A DNA stretch of 64,000 bases from Naegleria gruberi. Lineage: Eukaryota. The stretch's first letter is position 1. Every line of letters begins with the position of its first letter. The notes beneath the pieces were generated by a model that did not search any database, was not told the origin of the DNA, and saw only the letters and a program-made list of their open reading frames with translations. This document shows positions 1,528-19,391 of the stretch, piece after piece. Both the position numbers and the translations under genes were made by a program. The stretch is from assembly GCA_000004985.1 (NCBI GenBank), contig GG738873.1; one strand, given 5' to 3'.

Positions 1528-3429
1528 TTATTGGATTAAACATTTAGGTTTACCATTATTCGAAACTTGAGAATCCTGTAAAAGACAGCACTTTACAATC
1601 AATTCTTTCAATTCTTCAATTCCCACCATTTTCAATGAAGAAACTTCTGTAAATGATAAACATTTCAATTCTCTGGCTAGATTTTCTCCTTCCTCATACG
1701 AAACTATTCTTGGTTTTTCTTTCGAATAAAAATTTTCTCCTGGATTATAATTCCTCAAATCAGATTTTGTTCCCAACAGTAGAATTGGTGTTTTTGGTGA
1801 GTGAAGTCTTGTTTCCTCTACAAAAGTATCCTTAACTCGATGAAAGCTGTCTAAATTGTAGATACTGTACACTACAATGGTAAGATCTGGTGGAGGAGAG
1901 TAGGATAAATATCTAATTATTTCATAATCATATCCTCCAGCTGTATCTCTCATTTGGAGTGTGAATGTTTGATTTTTGAGAGTTACTGGAATTGGATGTT
2001 CACTTTCGAATACTGTTGGGATGTATTCTTGTGGAAATTCATTCATGGCTAGTACTATTTGCATTGAGGTTTTACCAACATTTGATGATCCAATTACGGT
2101 AATTCTAAATTCATGTAAATTATTTTCAGTTTCCTTGACAAGTTGTTGAATGTCTTGTTTTAAAATTTCCTGTTTTGGCTTGAATTGAAATTCAATGAGG
2201 GTTTTAATTCTTCCCAGTTCAATAATGTGATTTTTGGATTGTTGATAAAAAGTTCTTGAATGTAAAGCAAGATTGTAATAATTAACTCCACTACGTCGTG
2301 GGCTCACATTTTGTGATTTGCTTAACAAGAACTTCTTCCATAATTTGTCCTCAATGCTTAGTTGACTAAGTTGACAGTCTTTTCCAATCAATTGAACATT
2401 ATTGAGATCATGAACTGGTAAATATTCCAAAATCATTCTAAAAATGTCTTCGTTTAGCATTGATAACTTTCCATTATTTTCCTTTGCATTGATATTTGAG
2501 ATAGATTGTTGATATTTTCCTCCCCAGACAAAATAATAAACCACAAAGGTTAATTCGTGGGGTGTGTAAATGGTCAATGAATGGAAAACAGGTCCAAATT
2601 CAGAATTATTAAACACTCGAGAGAGAAAATGAAAGTTTTCTTCTCTCCACTCATTCTTCTCTGAGAGGTTTAAACTATGTAGAGTGGTAAAATCATGATT
2701 TGAATTACAACCACCAATCAAGAATAGCCTATCGTTTTCTATCCATGATTTGTGACCATATCTTGAAATATTTTGAGGAATTTTCTTGATTTTACAATTC
2801 AGATACTCAGATTCTGATAAATTTTCTAAATCAATTAGTAAAACGTCATTGATTGGAATATTTCCACTTTGTTTTCCACCTGAAATGATCAACAAATTAT
2901 TGTAAATCAGTGAGGAATGAAAGTATCTCCCCAAAATTTCATTATTTTTCCTATTTTTTAAAGACCGACATTTCCATTCGAAAGTTTTCAAATTTAATTC
3001 GAAAACTTGATTGGAAACAAATCCATCAGAATCATATCCACCAAATATAATCATGGAATCTTTGTAAATCTCAGCAGAATGTCCAAATCTGGGAGAAATA
3101 ACTTGATCATTCACAGTTGTTAGTTTCGTCCATTTTCCAACAGATTCCTTTGAATTAAATTCGAATTGCCAAACATCAGCTAGATATCCATTCGATTTAC
3201 CACCAAATAAAATCATTTTGTGATCATGGGAGATTGCAGAATGGAAATTTCTTGGAGATGGTTTTTCACCTTCCGATAAAATTATTGGAATGCAAGATTC
3301 TGATGAAATTTCATAAACTCTCAACTGATCAGAGTATTCGTTTTGATTGGCACTTTCGAGTAATCCACCAAAAATTAAAATATATTCATTGTTGATATTG
3401 ACGGATGTGTGACCGATGAGTTTTGACAT
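1528..3429 (-). CDS. Kelch-repeat beta-propeller, F-box and Rho/Rac-like GTPase in one polypeptide (633 aa)
   Basis: Single uninterrupted ORF with an A-rich context before the ATG. The N-terminal about 330 aa carry repeated kelch-type motifs (ILIFGG, MILFGG, MIIFGG, LIISGG, LFLIGG). An F-box-like segment follows (LNEDIFRMILEYLPVHDLNNVQLIGKDCQ...DKLWKKFLL). The C-terminal domain aligns to Rac/Rho: GSSNVGKT P-loop, YIPTVFE, DTAGGYDY, LLGTKSDLR. Confidence 0.8.
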   Translation of the reverse strand: MSKLIGHTSVNINNEYILIFGGLLESANQNEYSDQLRVYEISSESCIPIILSEGEKPSPRNFHSAISHDHKMILFGGKSNGYLADVWQFEFNSKESVGKWTKLTTVNDQVISPRFGHSAEIYKDSMIIFGGYDSDGFVSNQVFELNLKTFEWKCRSLKNRKNNEILGRYFHSSLIYNNLLIISGGKQSGNIPINDVLLIDLENLSESEYLNCKIKKIPQNISRYGHKSWIENDRLFLIGGCNSNHDFTTLHSLNLSEKNEWREENFHFLSRVFNNSEFGPVFHSLTIYTPHELTFVVYYFVWGGKYQQSISNINAKENNGKLSMLNEDIFRMILEYLPVHDLNNVQLIGKDCQLSQLSIEDKLWKKFLLSKSQNVSPRRSGVNYYNLALHSRTFYQQSKNHIIELGRIKTLIEFQFKPKQEILKQDIQQLVKETENNLHEFRITVIGSSNVGKTSMQIVLAMNEFPQEYIPTVFESEHPIPVTLKNQTFTLQMRDTAGGYDYEIIRYLSYSPPPDLTIVVYSIYNLDSFHRVKDTFVEETRLHSPKTPILLLGTKSDLRNYNPGENFYSKEKPRIVSYEEGENLARELKCLSFTEVSSLKMVGIEELKELIVKCCLLQDSQVSNNGKPKCLIQ

Positions 3430-3508: not shown

Positions 3509-3760
3509 TCGGGTGTGGTATAGTGGTAGCATTCCAGACTGTCACTCTGGCGACCCGGGTTCAATTTGTTTTGTTAGTGTGTATGAGTTAGTAATGAATG
3601 ATATCGGTTAATCCTTATTTGGAAATTTCATTCCCGGTACCCAAAGTATGAACGAGAGTTTTGACTATGTGAAATCAAATTGTTTATTGCTCGAGTGCCT
3701 TTTGATCAAGAAGTTACAGTTATGAATAATTATCAAGAAATTCAATTCCCGGCACTCGAG
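3509..3760 (+). pseudogene. tRNA-Asp(GTC) gene interrupted in the T-loop by a ~180-bp insert. The 5' part is 3509-3566 and the 3' part is 3741-3760.
   Basis: Positions 3509-3566 fold as acceptor 5' strand TCGGGTG, a D-arm, an anticodon stem-loop CCAGA/CTGTCAC/TCTGG (anticodon GTC) and a T-stem CCGGG plus TTCAATT loop, but no closing strand follows. The missing piece, TTCAATT-CCCGG-CACTCGA-G, lies at 3741-3760 and pairs perfectly with both the T-stem and the acceptor stem. Both junctions carry TTCAATT. Confidence 0.6.
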
Positions 3761-3790
3761 TTTAATTTTTGACTCTGTCTCCAATTTTTA
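3567..3790. repeat. Diverged tandem duplication of about 113 bp (two units). It covers the 3' end of the tRNA-Asp and its flank, and it is the cause of the tRNA disruption.
   Basis: Unit 1 (about 3567-3680) and unit 2 (about 3681-3790) share gtta.agt.atgaat.at.atc, then aaatt(t)ca(a)ttcccgg(t/c)ac, then cgag...ttttgact.tgt. Unit 1 holds a degenerate copy of the tRNA 3' piece (ttcattcccggtacccaaag). Confidence 0.5.
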
Positions 3791-4159: not shown

Positions 4160-4232
4160 GCCCGTCTAGCTCAGTCGGTAGAGCGCAAGGCTCTTAACCT
4201 TGTGGTCGTGGGTTCGACCCCCACGGTGGGCG
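4160..4232 (+). tRNA. tRNA-Lys (anticodon CTT)
   Basis: The 73-nt sequence GCCCGTCTAGCTCAGTCGGTAGAGCGCAAGGCTCTTAACCTTGTGGTCGTGGGTTCGACCCCCACGGTGGGCG has a canonical cloverleaf with anticodon loop CTCTTAA. It is near-identical in layout to eukaryotic tRNA-Lys-CTT. Confidence 0.9.
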
Positions 4233-9618: not shown

Positions 9619-9671
9619 TAATTTTAATGGTTTGTAAACTTGGAGATTGAACTGACAGTTTGTTAAAAAAA

Positions 9672-12600
9672 ATGATAATTGACCAACACCAAACTGCACC
9701 TCGTTGGATTTGCAACAAGTGCCAAGGATTCATCGATAGGGGAACAATCCGATACGTCAATACTGATGAAAAGGACTTTGACTTGTGTGAAAATTGTTAT
9801 CACTGGTGTTGGGAACAGTATCAGAAGAGAAAGCAACATAATACAAATTCACAATTTAATTCTCTTGATGATGATGGTGATGATGATGTTGGGAATAACA
9901 CGGAAAATAACAAAATATTGGACATGTTCTGTAGGGATTTGGAATTTATTGTACCAACCAAGTATCACTATTCTGAAATGAAAGGACGAATTAAAAGTTC
10001 CGATCGGTTTAATAGTTCTCTGTTTAGATCATTTGTTGAATATTCACTCAATCCTTGCTTTGGATTGTTGAAACAAGATGATGGTCCCTATCATTTTCAA
10101 ACCTATGAACAGGTATTTCATTTGATTTGTTGCATCAGTATTGGATTAGATCAGATTTTGAAACCATTAATACGAGTGGGAAAGAGACAATTTGTATCAA
10201 TATGTGGAAAGAATAATTTGTATTGGTATTTGAGTGATTATGCTTGTTTCTTTAGGGGGTTTGTGATTGCCCCCATTCATTTTGCTCAATCATTTGAGGA
10301 GACGAAATATTGCATTGAACTGACAGAGAGTCAAGTTGCTATTTGTACTGAAGAAATGTTAGATTTATTCATTAGAATTACCAAAGAGTTGGATATTGTG
10401 AAATATATTATTGTAATGGATGATACAGAATCAAAATCAAGAGGAAAATTTACCAATCAAAGAGGAACACAAGAAATTGAAATTATTCCAATGAATGACA
10501 TTATTGACGCTGGAAAATCAATATTGTGTGAATATTTGAATGAAAAGAACAAACCAAGAACGAATCCATATCCAGAACATTATGAAAATCACGAGACAAT
10601 CCTTGTGACTCCACCTCAGGACAAGTACGATCCTAGAAAGATGTGGATTGGAGTGGAACATGAAGAATTTATTCTAAATAGGTTGGATAATGAGGAGGAT
10701 CTAGTGACTCTTGTTTTCACAAGTGGATCCACTGGTATTCCAAAAGGAATCATGATGAGTGATAGAGCTTTGAGAAAGGAAGTACTCAGTTTAAGGATAA
10801 AAGATCCTAAAGTTCGTTTCTCTTTTTGTCCACTCGCTCACATGAGTGATAGAAAATACACCCTATTGGCCATGTGTAATGGAGCCAGAGTTGGAATATT
10901 TACTAGAGAATTTGTTCACATCTTTGAGGATATTCAAAACTGCAAACCAGTTGTAATTGCATCCACTCCAAGATTATTCAATGTGCTGTACGATGAGTTT
11001 AAGAAAGTAGTCGAATTGGAAAGAATTCGTTGGCTTTCTTCCACTGAAACTGGGAAACCAAAAACTGAGAAGGAACTTGAGGAAAGAACCATGCTTGACT
11101 TTCAATACATGCTTGGTGGGCGTGTTCAATCAATTATTCTTGGAGGGGCTTCTTCTAGCCCACAATTAAGAGAATTTTTGGCAAAATGTTTCCAGTGTAA
11201 AGTAACAGATGGTTTTGGAATGTCTGAAGCTGGAGGAATTATGAATAACAATCGACTCAACACTAATGTCGAATACAAGTTGATTGATGTTCCTGAATTG
11301 AGCTATTTCACAACAGACAAACCTTATCCGAGAGGAGAACTTTGTGTCAAGACAAATTACATGTTTATTGGATATTATAAGAATGAAGAGCTCACTAATA
11401 ATGCACTGGATGAAAATGGATGGTTACACACCAACGATATTGTTGAAGAATTAGGACCAAATCAAATCAGAATTATTGACAGACTGAAGAATATTTTCAA
11501 ATTGAGTCAGGGTGAATTCATAGCACCTGCCAAGATTGAAGATGCTCTCACTACCTCTAAATTTATTTTCCAAGCTTTTATTTATGGCAATGTGACAAAG
11601 AGCTACTTGGTTGGTGTCATTGTTCCCAACAAAACAGTTTTAAAACAGTTTGCAATTAAGGAAGGAATTATCAAACCATCAGCCGATCACCATCTCCTAA
11701 ATGAAGAAGAGAAAGAAGTATTGGCAAATAATGAGCTGATCAAGAAAGCTCTATGTGAAGAGATTGAGAAAGTTGCTGTAAATTGTTCACTTTTGTCTTA
11801 CGAAGTTCCAAAAGATTTTATCATTGAATTTGAACCTTTTAGTGAGAAAAATGATTTACTAACCTCCTCTATGAAGGTTAAGAGATTTGGATGTGAAATG
11901 AAATATAAGGAACAATTGGAGACACTCTATGAGCATGTAGATAGAAATTACAAGAGAAAGTTGGACGAAGATTTGATTCGTGAATTGTTAGTGAACTCCT
12001 CATCAGGCTCAGAGGAATCTGCAGATGGAAATATGAAAATTATTGACAGTCTTCATGCAGTTAAATTTTCTGGAATTATGAAACAAAAATTCAACATTGA
12101 CATTCCACTTTCATTGATATTTTCTCAAACGGATAGGAATGTGGAAAGTGTAGTGAGTAGAGTTTCAAACTTTGTCACAAAAGGCCAAACTAATCAGCAA
12201 TCGTATGACTGGAAAAAGGATATTCTCTTACCACAAGAACTTCTCGATGAAATTACTGACATTACTTCAAAAGGAAAGCAGAAATTCAATAAGATATCAA
12301 ACCTAAAGAAGGGTATTCTTCTGACTGGCTCAACTGGATTTTTAGGTGCCTTCCTATTGAGAGATTTATTGGAGAATTTACAAACAGCTCAGGAGCATGT
12401 GAAAATCTATTGTTTGATAAGAGAAAAGAATCAGCAACACAGTTTATTCACTAGATTGAAGAAACATCTTGTAAAATTCAATATCTGGAAAGATACTTAT
12501 GAAAGGAGAATATCTGTCATTAGGGGAAATTTACAGGATGAGAATTTAGGTCTCTCTCATGAGGAATTCAACAAATTGGCTGGAGATGTTGACATTATTT

Positions 12601-13604
12601 ACCACAATGGAGCATATGTCAACTCAGTCATGTCGTACTCTCAATTATTCTCTTCCAATGCTGGATCTACGTACTATTTATTGAAACTTGCTTGCCTGTC
12701 ATCAAAATTGAATATCCAAAATGATGGAGATTCCTTAACACCAATTATTCTCGTTTCAACTGTTGGTGTTGTACAATCTGCGTTGTCAGAATTTGATCTA
12801 CCAACCAGAAAATCTCAAGTTAATGATAACCCTCAGGAAACTAAAGAAATGATTAGCAATCATGTCGATCAAGTCATTGGTCAACTGAAACCAATTATTG
12901 AAAAAGCAGCTGGGTATAACAGCACCAAATTTATTGCAGAACAATACATTCAACAAGCAAGGTTATTGGGATATCCCGGTGCCATCTTTAGACCAGGAAT
13001 GATTGGAAGTGATACTGAGAATGGAGTTTCGAATTTAGAGGACTGGGTCAATAGGTTGATTCTGGGATGTTTCGAATTGGGTTGCTTCCCACAAACCAAA
13101 AAATCTCTCAATGTCATTCCTGTGGATATTATTTCAAGAGTGATTGTGGAATTGACACAGAATGAGAATGTATTCATTGGTACTTTACAATCCAATCCAA
13201 ACTATTTGATTTATGAGGTGGCTAATCTTTCTCAATATGAAATTCAAATTGATAATTTACTTGGCATCGCTGCCACAACTCTAGCGAAATTGCTAAACAA
13301 GAAACCAATGGAAATGGTTAGCTACACTAAGTGGAAACAAATACTGAATGAGAGAACATCAACCGAAGAAAACGAAATGTTATTGATTTTGAAAACTCTC
13401 TTCAAATCAGATACGGAATTTCTAAAAAGCATAAACAAACTCCAAGACAACCACATTCAGAAAATCATTGAAGTTCTTTCTAGATCAGAAAGCATACAGT
13501 GCAGAGAATTAGTTCCTAACAAAAATCTAAACCAAAACTATCTTGAAAAACAAGCTCTATACCTAGTCCAGAGTCTCAAGAAGAAATTGGGCGAAAATTT
13601 ATAA
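9672..13604 (+). CDS. ZZ-type zinc finger, long-chain acyl-CoA-synthetase-type adenylation domain, phosphopantetheine carrier (PCP) domain and NAD(P)-dependent thioester reductase domain (about 1,310 aa)
   Basis: Uninterrupted ORF; the first ATG at 9672 has an A-run before it. The ZZ finger is CNKCQGFIDRGTIRYVNTDEKDFDLCENCYHWCWEQY. AMP-binding motifs are LVFTSGSTGIPKG, GYYKNEELT..GWLHTNDI, IIDRLKNIFKLSQGEFIAPAKIE and LLTSSMKVKR (ACSL-type). The carrier motif is GNMKIIDSLHAVKF...IDIPLSLIF (DSL serine). The reductase domain has LLTGSTGFLGAFLL (Rossmann fold) and GYNSTKFIAEQ (YxxxK). Confidence 0.85.
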   Translation: MIIDQHQTAPRWICNKCQGFIDRGTIRYVNTDEKDFDLCENCYHWCWEQYQKRKQHNTNSQFNSLDDDGDDDVGNNTENNKILDMFCRDLEFIVPTKYHYSEMKGRIKSSDRFNSSLFRSFVEYSLNPCFGLLKQDDGPYHFQTYEQVFHLICCISIGLDQILKPLIRVGKRQFVSICGKNNLYWYLSDYACFFRGFVIAPIHFAQSFEETKYCIELTESQVAICTEEMLDLFIRITKELDIVKYIIVMDDTESKSRGKFTNQRGTQEIEIIPMNDIIDAGKSILCEYLNEKNKPRTNPYPEHYENHETILVTPPQDKYDPRKMWIGVEHEEFILNRLDNEEDLVTLVFTSGSTGIPKGIMMSDRALRKEVLSLRIKDPKVRFSFCPLAHMSDRKYTLLAMCNGARVGIFTREFVHIFEDIQNCKPVVIASTPRLFNVLYDEFKKVVELERIRWLSSTETGKPKTEKELEERTMLDFQYMLGGRVQSIILGGASSSPQLREFLAKCFQCKVTDGFGMSEAGGIMNNNRLNTNVEYKLIDVPELSYFTTDKPYPRGELCVKTNYMFIGYYKNEELTNNALDENGWLHTNDIVEELGPNQIRIIDRLKNIFKLSQGEFIAPAKIEDALTTSKFIFQAFIYGNVTKSYLVGVIVPNKTVLKQFAIKEGIIKPSADHHLLNEEEKEVLANNELIKKALCEEIEKVAVNCSLLSYEVPKDFIIEFEPFSEKNDLLTSSMKVKRFGCEMKYKEQLETLYEHVDRNYKRKLDEDLIRELLVNSSSGSEESADGNMKIIDSLHAVKFSGIMKQKFNIDIPLSLIFSQTDRNVESVVSRVSNFVTKGQTNQQSYDWKKDILLPQELLDEITDITSKGKQKFNKISNLKKGILLTGSTGFLGAFLLRDLLENLQTAQEHVKIYCLIREKNQQHSLFTRLKKHLVKFNIWKDTYERRISVIRGNLQDENLGLSHEEFNKLAGDVDIIYHNGAYVNSVMSYSQLFSSNAGSTYYLLKLACLSSKLNIQNDGDSLTPIILVSTVGVVQSALSEFDLPTRKSQVNDNPQETKEMISNHVDQVIGQLKPIIEKAAGYNSTKFIAEQYIQQARLLGYPGAIFRPGMIGSDTENGVSNLEDWVNRLILGCFELGCFPQTKKSLNVIPVDIISRVIVELTQNENVFIGTLQSNPNYLIYEVANLSQYEIQIDNLLGIAATTLAKLLNKKPMEMVSYTKWKQILNERTSTEENEMLLILKTLFKSDTEFLKSINKLQDNHIQKIIEVLSRSESIQCRELVPNKNLNQNYLEKQALYLVQSLKKKLGENL

Positions 13605-14261
13605 AGTTTTAAGAAAAGATAAAGTTGCAATATGTCTGAGTTTTCTGGATTTTCAAAAAGTGAAATATTCCGAATGTTAAATTGAAATACTTATTACCAG
13701 GTTAGCTAGCCATAAAATTTGTCATCATACATGCTCGGAATTTGACAAATACTCAATTTTACTCTGATTGAGATTTCTTTGTGCAATGATTTTTCAATTA
13801 ATTAAAAGAGTTAGGTGGCTCCTAATCTGACGGTTTGTGCAATGTCTGATTGAAACCAAATCAAAGTGAGCAATTAAGCTCAAACCCTGATCCCTACAAA
13901 AAATTGAGTTAATAGTAGATGCAACCCGTGAGCTGCTTTCAGCTATTAAACTGAAAAGAAAAGATACTACACTCGATCAAAGCCAATTGGCCGAGAAAGA
14001 TGGTTTTGAGAATTGCATAAGGAACAGAGTATTTATTCTGTTGGTTGTGGAGTGAAGAATGGCAAAATGTTTGTGGTATTTTAATAAATTTTAATGCCTT
14101 GTTCGACTATTGATATTGAACATGTAGCGAATCTTAATAATCAATATTTATGATGGAGCAGTTCAATCAGAACTTGGAAAGAATGTGAGAAGCAAACTTG
14201 ACTAACAATTAAGGGGGATGCATTGATAAGTAAAACGTGAACTAGTGAAAAAAACAAATAA

Positions 14262-14268
14262 ACAAAAA
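14262..14268 (-). terminator. Pol III oligo-T terminator directly after 5S copy 1
   Basis: The minus strand reads TCTTTTTGTTTATTTG immediately 3' of the 5S end. Confidence 0.5.
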
Positions 14269-14390
14269 GACTACAGCACCACAGGTTCCCAAGTTGTCTC
14301 CAACCTCAGTACTGATGTGGCTCGACGATGCTTAACTTCTCAAATAGGACGGGATGAGGTGTATTCATCGTGATATGGCCGTAGCCATAC
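14269..14390 (-). rRNA. 5S ribosomal RNA gene (copy 1)
   Basis: The minus strand reads GTATGGCTACGGCCATATCACGATGAATACACCTCATCCCGTCCTATTTGAGAAGTTAAGCATCGTCGAGCCACATCAGTACTGAGGTTGGAGACAACTTGGGAACCTGTGGTGCTGTAGTC. It is about 122 nt, has the conserved 5S blocks (CTACGGCCATA, CCCGTC, GAAGTTAAGCA, AGTACT, GGTGCTGTAG) and is followed by a T-run. Confidence 0.85.
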
Positions 14391-19260: not shown

Positions 19261-19269
19261 AGATGAAAA
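19261..19269 (-). terminator. Pol III oligo-T terminator after 5S copy 2
   Basis: The minus strand reads TCTTTTCATCTTTT immediately 3' of the 5S end. Confidence 0.45.
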
Positions 19270-19391
19270 GACTACAGCACCACAGGTTCCCAAGTTGTCT
19301 CCAACCTCAGTACTGATGTGGCTCGACGATGCTTAACTTCTCAAATCGGACGGGATGAGGTGCATGAATCGTGATATGGCCGTAGCCATTC
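19270..19391 (-). rRNA. 5S ribosomal RNA gene (copy 2)
   Basis: Same 122-nt sequence as copy 1 with about 6 substitutions, followed by a T-run. It sits 27 nt from the ATG of the thioredoxin-domain gene. Confidence 0.85.

Follow-up and report, generated by a model that had tools for sequence, protein, structure and literature searches.

A tRNA-Asp(GUC) gene of Naegleria gruberi interrupted in its T loop: a probable disrupted copy

A tRNA gene whose two ends stand apart on the same strand raises an immediate question: does the locus still yield a tRNA, or is it what remains of a gene that once did? One such locus lies at positions 3509–3790 of a 64,000-nucleotide stretch of contig GG738873.1, referred to here as the window. 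Judged from its sequence, the window is nuclear DNA of Naegleria gruberi, a species in whose 41-Mb genome tRNAscan-SE reports 924 hits, comprising 883 genes and 41 pseudogenes (PMC2888827). The window also holds a U2 snRNA, two 5S genes, and one tRNA-Lys gene. The open reading frame at 1528–3429 (minus strand) encodes a protein that matches an N. gruberi protein at NCBI with 100% identity, and the flanking genes are members of lineage-specific kelch-GTPase and NHL-kinase families. An earlier note on this DNA offered two readings of the locus, a dead tRNA gene or a gene with a T-loop intron. The analysis described below favors the first: we consider it probable that the locus is a disrupted, non-functional copy of a standard tRNA-Asp(GUC) gene, resulting from a local rearrangement or a small insertion.

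Two pieces of one tRNA-Asp

The 5′ piece (3509–3566, plus strand) corresponds to tRNA-Asp(GUC) positions 1–60, as supported by the sequence itself, by ARAGORN after joining, by the family model R1, and by related genes. It comprises the 5′ strand of the acceptor stem (TCGGGTG), the D arm, the anticodon arm (CCAGA-CTGTCAC-TCTGG, with the anticodon GTC at 3541–3543), the variable region, the 5′ strand of the T stem (CCGGG, 3555–3559), and the T loop (TTCAATT, 3560–3566, plus strand). The seven nucleotides of this loop recur identically on the same strand at 3741–3747, where they lead directly into the 3′ piece (3748–3760, plus strand), which consists of the 3′ strand of the T stem (CCCGG), the 3′ strand of the acceptor stem (CACTCGA), and the discriminator G. 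The resulting 20-mer, TTCAATT-CCCGG-CACTCGA-G at 3741–3760, occurs only once in the window even when three mismatches are allowed (0.01 expected).

The unjoined locus receives no tRNA call from either ARAGORN or Rfam; when 3509–3566 is joined to 3748–3760, ARAGORN calls the 71-nt product as tRNA-Asp(gtc). The split is real, and both pieces belong to one tRNA-Asp. Thus, the description in the earlier note of a perfect 5′ part ending at 3566 with its complementary remainder downstream is upheld, although the distance given there, 180 bp, requires a small correction: the pieces are separated by 181 nt, made up of a 174-nt insert and the second TTCAATT. Because TTCAATT stands on either side of the insert, the break or splice point can be placed in eight registers. 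The repeat resembles either a target-site duplication or microhomology at a junction.

The 5′ piece is also the top match in the window to R1 (48.3 bits, E 2e-10), a covariance model trained exclusively on foreign members of the family, and R1 detects no second tRNA-Asp anywhere in the window. This agrees with the earlier statement that the locus holds the only tRNA-Asp in the window; the argument built on that statement carries no weight, however, because the genome holds 924 tRNAscan-SE hits.

Related tRNA-Asp genes were found on six metagenome contigs (L001–L006), five of them complete and one truncated, and all are uninterrupted. They agree with the joined window tRNA in the anticodon arm, in a G4·U69 wobble, and in an A12×C23 mismatch in the D stem. 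At pairs 6:67 and 7:66, the window tRNA carries a compensatory change, with TG at positions 6–7 and CA at 66–67, where the relatives have CA and TG, respectively. Comparison with these genes shows that the joined pieces make a canonical tRNA-Asp, of a family that is known elsewhere in uninterrupted form. The interruption is not common to related genes, being absent from six of the six metagenome relatives. A pattern combining the D arm and the anticodon arm matched nothing in the metagenomes; the D loop of the relatives differs. Loci encoding homologues of the AMP-binding reductase in N. lovaniensis and in a Logan Naegleria assembly proved to be non-syntenic and without tRNA genes.

The locus has been viewed in one assembly, which leaves some room for an assembly or cloning artefact in the reference genome, with the true gene uninterrupted. 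Such an artefact is very improbable. The insert is unique and its junctions are clean, unlike those of a collapsed or chimeric repeat, and a misassembly would not produce a diverged internal copy of the 3′ end (described below) together with a perfect 7-nt junction repeat.

Composition and origin of the insert

The insert (3567–3740, plus strand) is AT-rich. No further copy of it exists in the 64 kb, and it belongs to no Rfam family, has no open reading frame longer than 41 aa, and lacks a stable fold (z-scores of 0.11 and −0.29, about 0). Several of its parts resemble the gene's own 3′ end and flanks. One of them, TTCATTCCCGGTACCCAAAG at 3627–3646 (plus strand), here called P, repeats the tRNA 3′ end in direct orientation but in decayed form: TTCA-TT, CCCGG, TACCCAA, and AG can be aligned with the intact 3′ sequence that ends in the 3′ piece (here, Q). 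P differs by three substitutions and two indels over 20 nt, giving a 6-nt T loop, a G7·U66 pair, a C2×A71 mismatch, and one surplus A. ARAGORN nevertheless still calls a tRNA-Asp when the 5′ piece is joined to P, and P is the sole other site in the 64 kb where CCCGG is followed by seven nucleotides that pair with TCGGGTG at six of seven positions.

Downstream of P lies a copy of the core of the 3′ trailer, TTTTGACTATGT (3659–3670, plus strand), to be compared with TTTTGACTCTGT at 3767–3778. The significance of the trailer copy alone depends on the test (p about 0.03 to 0.0005); that of P and the trailer core together, aligned with 3741–3760 and TTTTGACTCTGT, is p about 0.001–0.007 with composition-aware scoring and about 0.05 with plain scoring. 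In addition, the final 10 nt of the tRNA (GGCACTCGAG, 3751–3760) recur without mismatch in inverted orientation at 3690–3699 (plus strand) as CTCGAGTGCC, a similarity that 0 of 3000 shuffles match. A second, decayed tRNA at 3691–3760 was considered for this region, a 70-nt stretch with a perfect acceptor-like stem. In its interior, however, identity to the tRNA is only 26%, no higher than the random level, and the stem is therefore better read as an inverted copy.

The insert also carries a 9-mer that is present in the 5′ flank, and a TGT microhomology at 3668–3670 lies between the trailer patch and a 5′-flank patch. Overall, the insert and its own flanks share five exact patches of at least 8 nt, which together span 45 nt, compared with 18.6 ± 11.3 in shuffles; this enrichment is modest (p about 0.02), and 6% of random loci equal it. 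The patches make up about a quarter of the insert, derive from both flanks, and occur in both orientations, some of them imperfectly. Finally, P and Q both have a non-tRNA junction, GAAATT, that immediately precedes the T-loop remnant; the interruption therefore appears older than the duplication that produced P and Q.

The earlier note had proposed that the intervening DNA is a diverged tandem duplicate of a unit of about 113 bp, and that this duplication broke the gene. The resemblance of P and the trailer core stands; similarity across the whole unit does not. The two proposed units are about 55% identical when aligned with MAFFT, and Tandem Repeats Finder reports no repeat. The score of their local alignment is equalled by 3 of 2000 shuffles, but also by 2.8% of random adjacent pairs, and the non-tRNA parts of the units alone give p about 0.06. 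As the cause of the break, a tandem duplication is insufficient. A tandem copy running from T loop to flank keeps its first copy joined to the 5′ part and therefore cannot alone separate the halves, and the first unit runs through 60 nt of non-tRNA DNA before the 3′-end copy begins. The same 60 nt, which hold the first 3′ copy apart from the 5′ piece, led to rejection of an integrase-type integration that rebuilds the tRNA. A tRNA-derived SINE was likewise rejected: the downstream piece supplies exactly what the tRNA lacks, and no duplications flank the gene on the outside.

The block thus probably derives at least in part from the 3′ end and flank of the gene itself, as suggested by the direct copy, the trailer core, the inverted 10-mer, and the 5′-flank 9-mer. 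These patches point to local duplication or template switching via the TTCAATT microhomology, and not to a simple tandem duplication. This account of the origin is less certain than the disruption itself. Rearrangements that arise by template switching or microhomology are mosaics of short flank copies in both orientations, with microhomology at their junctions. The insert resembles them in being a mosaic of flank patches, in its TTCAATT and TGT microhomologies, and in a cluster of changes that creates a perfect 10-bp inverted repeat. It departs from them in that only about a quarter of it is covered and the enrichment is modest, with some patches imperfect.

A different origin, which we regard as unlikely but still the foremost of the alternatives, is that a short non-autonomous mobile element inserted into the T loop of a working tRNA-Asp gene and duplicated a 7-bp target site, TTCAATT; the gene would be dead in either case. 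The perfect direct repeat at the insert borders is consistent with such an event, and the unmutated gene halves are what a recent insertion would leave. Moreover, with about 900 tDNAs, N. gruberi has the type of genome in which tRNA-targeting elements persist. The Dada DNA transposons insert at fixed sites within multicopy tRNA and snRNA genes, where they generate duplications of 6–7 bp; they have no terminal inverted repeats, and their subterminal inverted repeats reproduce part of the target gene's sequence (PMC3706591). The locus is like them in its position inside a tRNA gene, its 7-bp repeat, its lack of terminal inverted repeats, its perfect inverted 10-nt copy of the target (41 nt from the right end of the insert), and its tRNA-rich host. 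However, the insert is a single known copy within 64 kb, and its 174 bp hold no coding capacity and no transposase, whereas complete Dada elements span 4.7–11 kb (PMC3706591). The missing terminal inverted repeats (8 of 15 positions match by eye) also count somewhat against a mobile element. The target 3′ end and flank, moreover, recur inside the insert as a direct copy: a decayed tRNA 3′ end and trailer core in the same orientation as the gene point to local DNA, not to a foreign element. The literature searched held no report of the Dada family from Heterolobosea, nor of a Dada or other tRNA-targeting element in Naegleria.

One feature sits awkwardly with a disrupted gene. Both tRNA pieces are unmutated, so either the arrangement is young or its ends have been homogenized by conversion from intact paralogues. 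The pristine halves beside the decayed P remain a puzzle, since decay of a dead gene in situ predicts otherwise. Simple decay leaves the intact ends unexplained, which makes it conceivable that selection has acted on a split gene that still functions, or that the block was imported.

Transcription of the locus and the case for splicing

The internal promoter is partly preserved. The A box is intact; the B box reads GGTTCAATTtg against the consensus GGTTCRANNCC, having lost its final two bases and kept 9 of 11 positions. With these elements, RNA polymerase III could still initiate. It would then encounter TTTT at 3569–3572 (plus strand), a probable stop signal only 3 nt past the 5′ piece, followed by two further T4 runs at 3659–3662 and 3700–3703 (plus strand) ahead of the 3′ piece. 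A T5 run at 3766–3770 (plus strand), 6 nt past the 3′ piece, reads as the original terminator of the gene, and a second T5 follows at 3785–3789. The three T4 runs in the insert compare with about 2.3 expected from its composition, so T4 is not avoided there. The first T-run is a T4 behind the tRNA-Lys gene of the window, behind its second 5S gene, and in four of the six relatives with a readable trailer; it is from such gene trailers that we infer how strongly T4 terminates transcription in Naegleria. Repeated T-runs behind genes suggest that some read-through occurs.

The main product of the disrupted gene would be a 3′-truncated transcript of about 62–66 nt, unable to form the T or acceptor stem and presumably degraded. 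In a read-through precursor, the 5′ acceptor strand would pair with P and the 3′ acceptor strand with the inverted 10-mer. Indeed, the inverted 10-mer makes the terminal helix in the unconstrained predicted fold, and if transcribed it would sequester the 3′ acceptor strand. The locus has likely ceased to yield tRNA, and with hundreds of tRNA genes in the genome its loss would be tolerated. Going uncalled by ARAGORN and Rfam, with a truncated B box and a T4 run 3 nt after the break, it has the marks of a tRNA pseudogene. It is similar to eukaryotic tRNA pseudogenes (PMC2888827) in being a member of a large multicopy family that gene finders do not recognize, with a damaged promoter and an internal terminator. 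It differs from the usual ones in that its halves carry no point mutations, the insertion is its only lesion, and a decayed second 3′ end lies inside.

The second reading of the earlier note, a T-loop intron, is in our estimation improbable. On this reading the gene works, and the tRNA splicing endonuclease and a ligase would excise 181 nt. This would require polymerase III to pass the T4 runs and the endonuclease to cut a relaxed bulge–helix–bulge (BHB)-like site near 57/58, with P as the relic of a 3′ exon duplicated inside the intron. A eukaryotic nuclear precedent exists in Cyanidioschyzon merolae, whose tRNA-Ile(UAU) has a 22-nt T-loop intron at 53/54 (PMC3728597). Whichever of the eight registers is chosen, joining the exons produces a flawless family member, and pristine exons next to a decayed P, in an interruption seemingly older than the P/Q duplication, form the pattern expected under exon selection. 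Register 57/58 even permits a relaxed HBh′-like drawing, equalled by only about 3% of random junction sets.

Nevertheless, this drawing is weak and not a convincing BHB: H consists of two G·U and two A-U pairs, h′ has three of four pairs, the outer helix is missing, and two T-stem pairs must melt. A strict hBHBh′ motif is absent in all eight registers. Three undepleted T4 runs, each a probable internal terminator, lie inside the supposed intron, and T4 trails polymerase III genes in the window; the B box, too, is broken. With the trailer of P and a T4 run upstream of Q, transcripts would stop after P, so Q should have decayed, yet decay fell on P. The precursor favors a fold other than the cloverleaf (−55.2 kcal/mol unconstrained vs −47.2 kcal/mol with the cloverleaf constrained, i.e., 8 kcal/mol worse), and the intron gives no structure signal. 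The six relatives are all uninterrupted, and the literature searched held no account of disrupted tRNA genes in Naegleria. Other intron types were rejected separately: no register yields GT...AG for a spliceosomal intron without altering the invariant G53, and a group I or other structured intron finds no Rfam match and a fold z-score of about 0.

Compared with the ectopic BHB introns of C. merolae and archaea (PMC3728597; PMC4090602), the locus is alike in its T-loop position and in having exons that join to a perfect cloverleaf. The C. merolae intron, however, is 22 nt long, has a strict hBHBh′, and was shown to be spliced by RT-PCR (PMC3728597), whereas the Naegleria interruption is 181 nt long, contains three T4 runs, and offers no convincing BHB, and the genes of its relatives are uninterrupted.

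The least probable of the readings weighed here has each piece expressed on its own and the two then joined in trans, or has the 5′ piece retained for a different function, for example as a boundary element bound by TFIIIC. The intact A box, the 9 of 11 B-box positions, and the terminator immediately after would suit a separately transcribed 5′ piece. This piece also sits upstream of the divergent GTPase gene (the 1528–3429 reading frame), whose start codon is 80 bp off, and its last nucleotides belong to an 11-nt stretch (3562–3572) that is 91% complementary to 3672–3682. In Nanoarchaeum equitans, split tRNA genes yield trans-spliced halves with complementary leader and trailer sequences adjacent to them. 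The locus is similar in having separate 5′ and 3′ pieces of one tRNA; unlike the archaeal genes, its pieces lie on one strand, 181 nt apart, in a eukaryotic host, with no adjacent complementary sequences (the complementary stretch is 60 nt upstream of the 3′ piece) and no visible promoter for the 3′ piece. We know of no precedent for trans-joined split tRNA genes in eukaryotic nuclei, and no result obtained here favors a boundary role.

Significance of the locus

To our knowledge, ectopic tRNA introns in eukaryotes have so far been found only in a red alga and in nucleomorphs. Were the Naegleria gene spliced, it would extend ectopic tRNA introns to a distant lineage and be the first in Discoba. 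Were the insert instead a mobile element specific for tRNA-Asp, it would be the first known to us in Heterolobosea to target tRNA genes. As a dead copy, the reading that we prefer, the locus would be of minor importance, one more loss among about 900 tRNA genes. It would, though, provide a datable example of how a tRNA gene is broken, whether by insertion into the T loop with a 7-nt repeat or by a mosaic of local patches.

A tRNA-Asp gene in two pieces

The 5' piece of a tRNA-Asp(GTC) gene, comprising positions 1-60 with the T loop TTCAATT, is located at 3509-3566 (+), and the downstream piece TTCAATT-CCCGG-CACTCGA-G lies on the same strand at 3741-3760. Even with up to three mismatches allowed, this 20-mer occurs only once in the window (0.01 occurrences expected). 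The 71-mer obtained by joining 3509-3566 to 3748-3760 is called tRNA-Asp(gtc) by ARAGORN; the unjoined genomic locus receives no tRNA call from ARAGORN, nor from Rfam even at E = 10. The split within the T loop is thus as the earlier note described it, and well above chance. The remainder is indeed downstream, but the offset between the pieces is 181 nt, not 180 bp. The insert itself (3567-3740) spans 174 nt and is bordered on each side by TTCAATT, and eight break or splice positions (53/54 to 60/61) are therefore possible.

A first metagenome search pattern returned zero matches. A second, combining the anticodon arm with the start of the T arm, retrieved six contigs (L001-L006), with complete, uninterrupted tRNA-Asp(GUC) genes in five and a shortened gene in the sixth. 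These relatives and the joined window sequence have in common an identical anticodon arm, a G4.U69 wobble and an A12xC23 mismatch in the D stem; taken by themselves, these features might have passed for decay. At positions 6-7 the window has TG where the relatives have CA, and at 66-67 CA in place of TG. Because these two compensatory pairs are split between the pieces, the pieces evolved as one tRNA, and neither carries a detectable defect. With a covariance model built solely from the five complete foreign genes, 3509-3559 was the top match in the whole window (48.3 bits), and no other Asp-type element was found in the 64 kb.

Past the split gene, 400 bp further downstream, is an intact gene for tRNA-Lys(CTT) (4160-4232 (+)). 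Contig L001 carries, 40 nt beyond its intact tRNA-Asp, a tRNA-Lys(CUU)-like fragment (793-818), which extends only from the anticodon arm to the T-arm GGGTT and then runs into TTTT. The Asp-Lys pairing is thus seen twice, with one partner broken in the T arm each time.

Local sequence within the insert

The 64-kb window contains no second copy of the insert, which also lacks any ORF longer than 41 aa, any Rfam match and any folding signal (z = 0.11 with the whole precursor folded, -0.29 with the T arm and insert). Within it lies P, which repeats the tRNA 3' end in the same orientation (TTCATTCCCGGTACCCAAAG, 3627-3646 (+)) but departs from the original in its 6-nt T loop, U66, C69, A71 and one extra A. 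Past a gap 3' of P comes TTTTGACTATGT, a match to TTTTGACTCTGT, which lies downstream of the true 3' end. Among six sites in the window consisting of CCCGG and the next seven nucleotides, only P (6/7) and the real 3' piece (7/7) can pair with the acceptor strand TCGGGTG, and the 5' piece joined to P is still accepted by ARAGORN. At 3690-3699 the final 10 nt of the tRNA recur in perfect inverted form.

Significance was judged against dinucleotide-shuffled versions of the entire insert. Under plain scoring the direct copy has p ~0.05 and the inverted one 0.025; under composition-aware scoring the 3' end has p = 0.0013 by itself and 0.007 with its trailer, and the inverted copy is reached by 0 of 3000 shuffles. 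Insert and flanks have five exact patches (8 nt or longer) in common, found in both orientations; together these cover 45 nt versus 18.6 +/- 11.3 in shuffles, a coverage equalled by 6% of random loci. We conclude that the insert consists partly of local sequence. The interval bounded by the inverted 10-mer and the true 3' end is 70-71 nt, as long as a tRNA, and its ends form a perfect acceptor-like stem (TCGAGTG/CACTCGA); a second tRNA at 3691-3760 was rejected, as the interior is only 26% identical to the tRNA, and the arrangement was ascribed to coincidence plus the inverted copy.

The tandem duplication proposed previously is upheld as far as the resemblance to the 3' end and trailer goes. 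Across the units as wholes the similarity is weak: the two 113-nt units are ~55% identical by MAFFT, Tandem Repeats Finder reports nothing for them, and their non-tRNA parts reach p ~0.06. Of randomly chosen neighbouring segment pairs from the window, 2.8% score equally. "Tandem duplication of a 113-bp unit" is, at best, a rough description. Nor can such an event have parted the 5' from the 3' piece, because the first copy would stay attached; a T-loop insertion or template switch is needed besides any tandem duplication.

Tests of a T-loop intron

The other proposal, that the intervening DNA is removed from the precursor as a T-loop intron, is very improbable. Runs of four T (T4) occur in it at 3569-3572 (3 nt past the 5' piece), 3659-3662 and 3700-3703; about 2.3 are expected in 181 nt at 38% T, and hence T4 is not avoided. 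The first T-run downstream of the tRNA-Lys(CTT) gene is a T4, as it is in four of the six related contigs, and the second 5S gene ends in a T4 followed by two more, with no run of five (T5) for ~60 nt. Given these cases, T4 very likely serves as a polymerase III terminator here, and the repeated runs suggest some leakage past it. The B box reads GGTTCAATTtg, so its last two consensus positions are gone. P's own trailer T4 precedes the real 3' piece (Q), so that P, rather than Q, would be the usable 3' exon if transcribed.

A strict bulge-helix-bulge (BHB) splice motif cannot be drawn at any of the eight registers. The best BHB-like case, a cut at 57/58, lacks an outer helix and builds its central one from two G.U and two A-U pairs; it places three of four pairs on the intron side and requires two T-stem pairs to open. 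Matched by ~3% of random junction sets, this drawing offers at most a weak hint of a splice motif. A precursor constrained to the cloverleaf is 8 kcal/mol less stable than the free fold, where P is the partner of the 5' acceptor strand and the inverted 10-mer that of the 3' acceptor strand. None of the related genes in L001-L006 is interrupted, and literature searches turned up no Naegleria tRNA gene described as disrupted. A T-loop intron verified by RT-PCR is known from tRNA-Ile(UAU) of C. merolae (PMC3728597); however, it is 22 nt long with a strict hBHBh' motif, whereas the Naegleria interruption measures 181 nt and allows none. T4 runs, truncated B box, absence of a strict BHB, folding cost, copy order and uninterrupted relatives all count against the intron, and the locus probably cannot work as an intron-bearing gene.

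The state of the two ends is a puzzle. Both tRNA pieces are pristine, and P has five changes in 20 nt. The units look old, and GAAATT just 5' of the T-loop remnants of both P and Q reads as if the interruption were older than the P/Q duplication; a gene dead since that duplication should show decayed ends too. The block may recently have come from an older interrupted paralogue, or copying may have been error-prone. Conversion from intact paralogues, which would keep the ends uniform, is plausible where the 58-nt piece is concerned; the 20-nt piece would need no more than chance (probability of all five changes falling on P, ~0.03). Finally, the exons may be under selection. With selection among these four ways out, the intron retains a small probability.

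A probably disrupted gene and its setting

The locus, at which the pieces, junction repeat, internal copies and T-runs are directly observed, is most likely a disrupted tRNA-Asp gene; of the earlier note's two alternatives, the dead gene is supported and the T-loop intron is not. With the start codon of a divergent kelch-GTPase gene (ORF 1528-3429(-)) 80 bp away, the 5' piece (3509-3566) lies upstream of that gene and hence within its likely promoter region. The product of this ORF matches an NCBI Naegleria gruberi protein at 100% identity over 633 aa, and the window also contains U2 snRNA (13810-14003) and two dispersed 5S rRNA genes (14268-14386 and 19269-19387), all on the (-) strand, a G+C content of 31-40% and long uninterrupted ORFs, which together identify nuclear heterolobosean amoeba DNA. 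The U2 and first 5S genes are 265 bp apart; the second 5S copy, 5 kb off, differs at a few positions and has three T4 runs as terminator versus T5 in the first. A further ORF, 9660-13604(+), encodes a carboxylate-reductase-like protein of 1314 aa (AMP-binding, NAD_binding_4). Its own product is absent among the database matches, the best of which, an N. gruberi protein on another contig, is only 71% identical, suggesting either that the two are recent paralogues or that the gene models differ.

The genes neighbouring the split tRNA-Asp are lineage-specific, and the N. lovaniensis and Logan Naegleria loci of the nearest conserved gene show no synteny with the window and no tRNA genes. A published tRNAscan-SE survey of the 41 Mb of N. 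gruberi counted 883 genes and 41 pseudogenes, 924 hits in all (PMC2888827, with supplementary file 2), or about one per 44 kb on average, versus none by ARAGORN in the ~70 kb of these loci (L007 and L008, N. lovaniensis; L009, Logan SRR29240419).

As to origin, we favour a local rearrangement in which the T-loop heptamer would have served as junction microhomology. The trailer patch ...GACTATGT joins the 5'-flank patch TGTGAAATC directly via a common TGT (3668-3670), and clustered differences between the two units create the perfect inverted 10-mer; both features fit template switching. The main alternative is that a small mobile element supplied the insert. Dada transposons enter fixed sites inside tRNA and snRNA genes with 6-7-bp duplications, have no terminal inverted repeats, and bear subterminal inverted copies of the target sequence (PMC3706591), a precedent for the heptamer and inverted copy seen here; yet they are 4.7-11 kb long and not known from Naegleria.

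In the disrupted gene, polymerase III would still initiate and stop at 3569-3572, and the truncated RNA of ~62-66 nt, unable to close its T and acceptor stems, would be discarded, with many other tRNA genes presumably meeting the need. The locus adds one more example to a familiar class, multicopy tRNA genes that have been interrupted.
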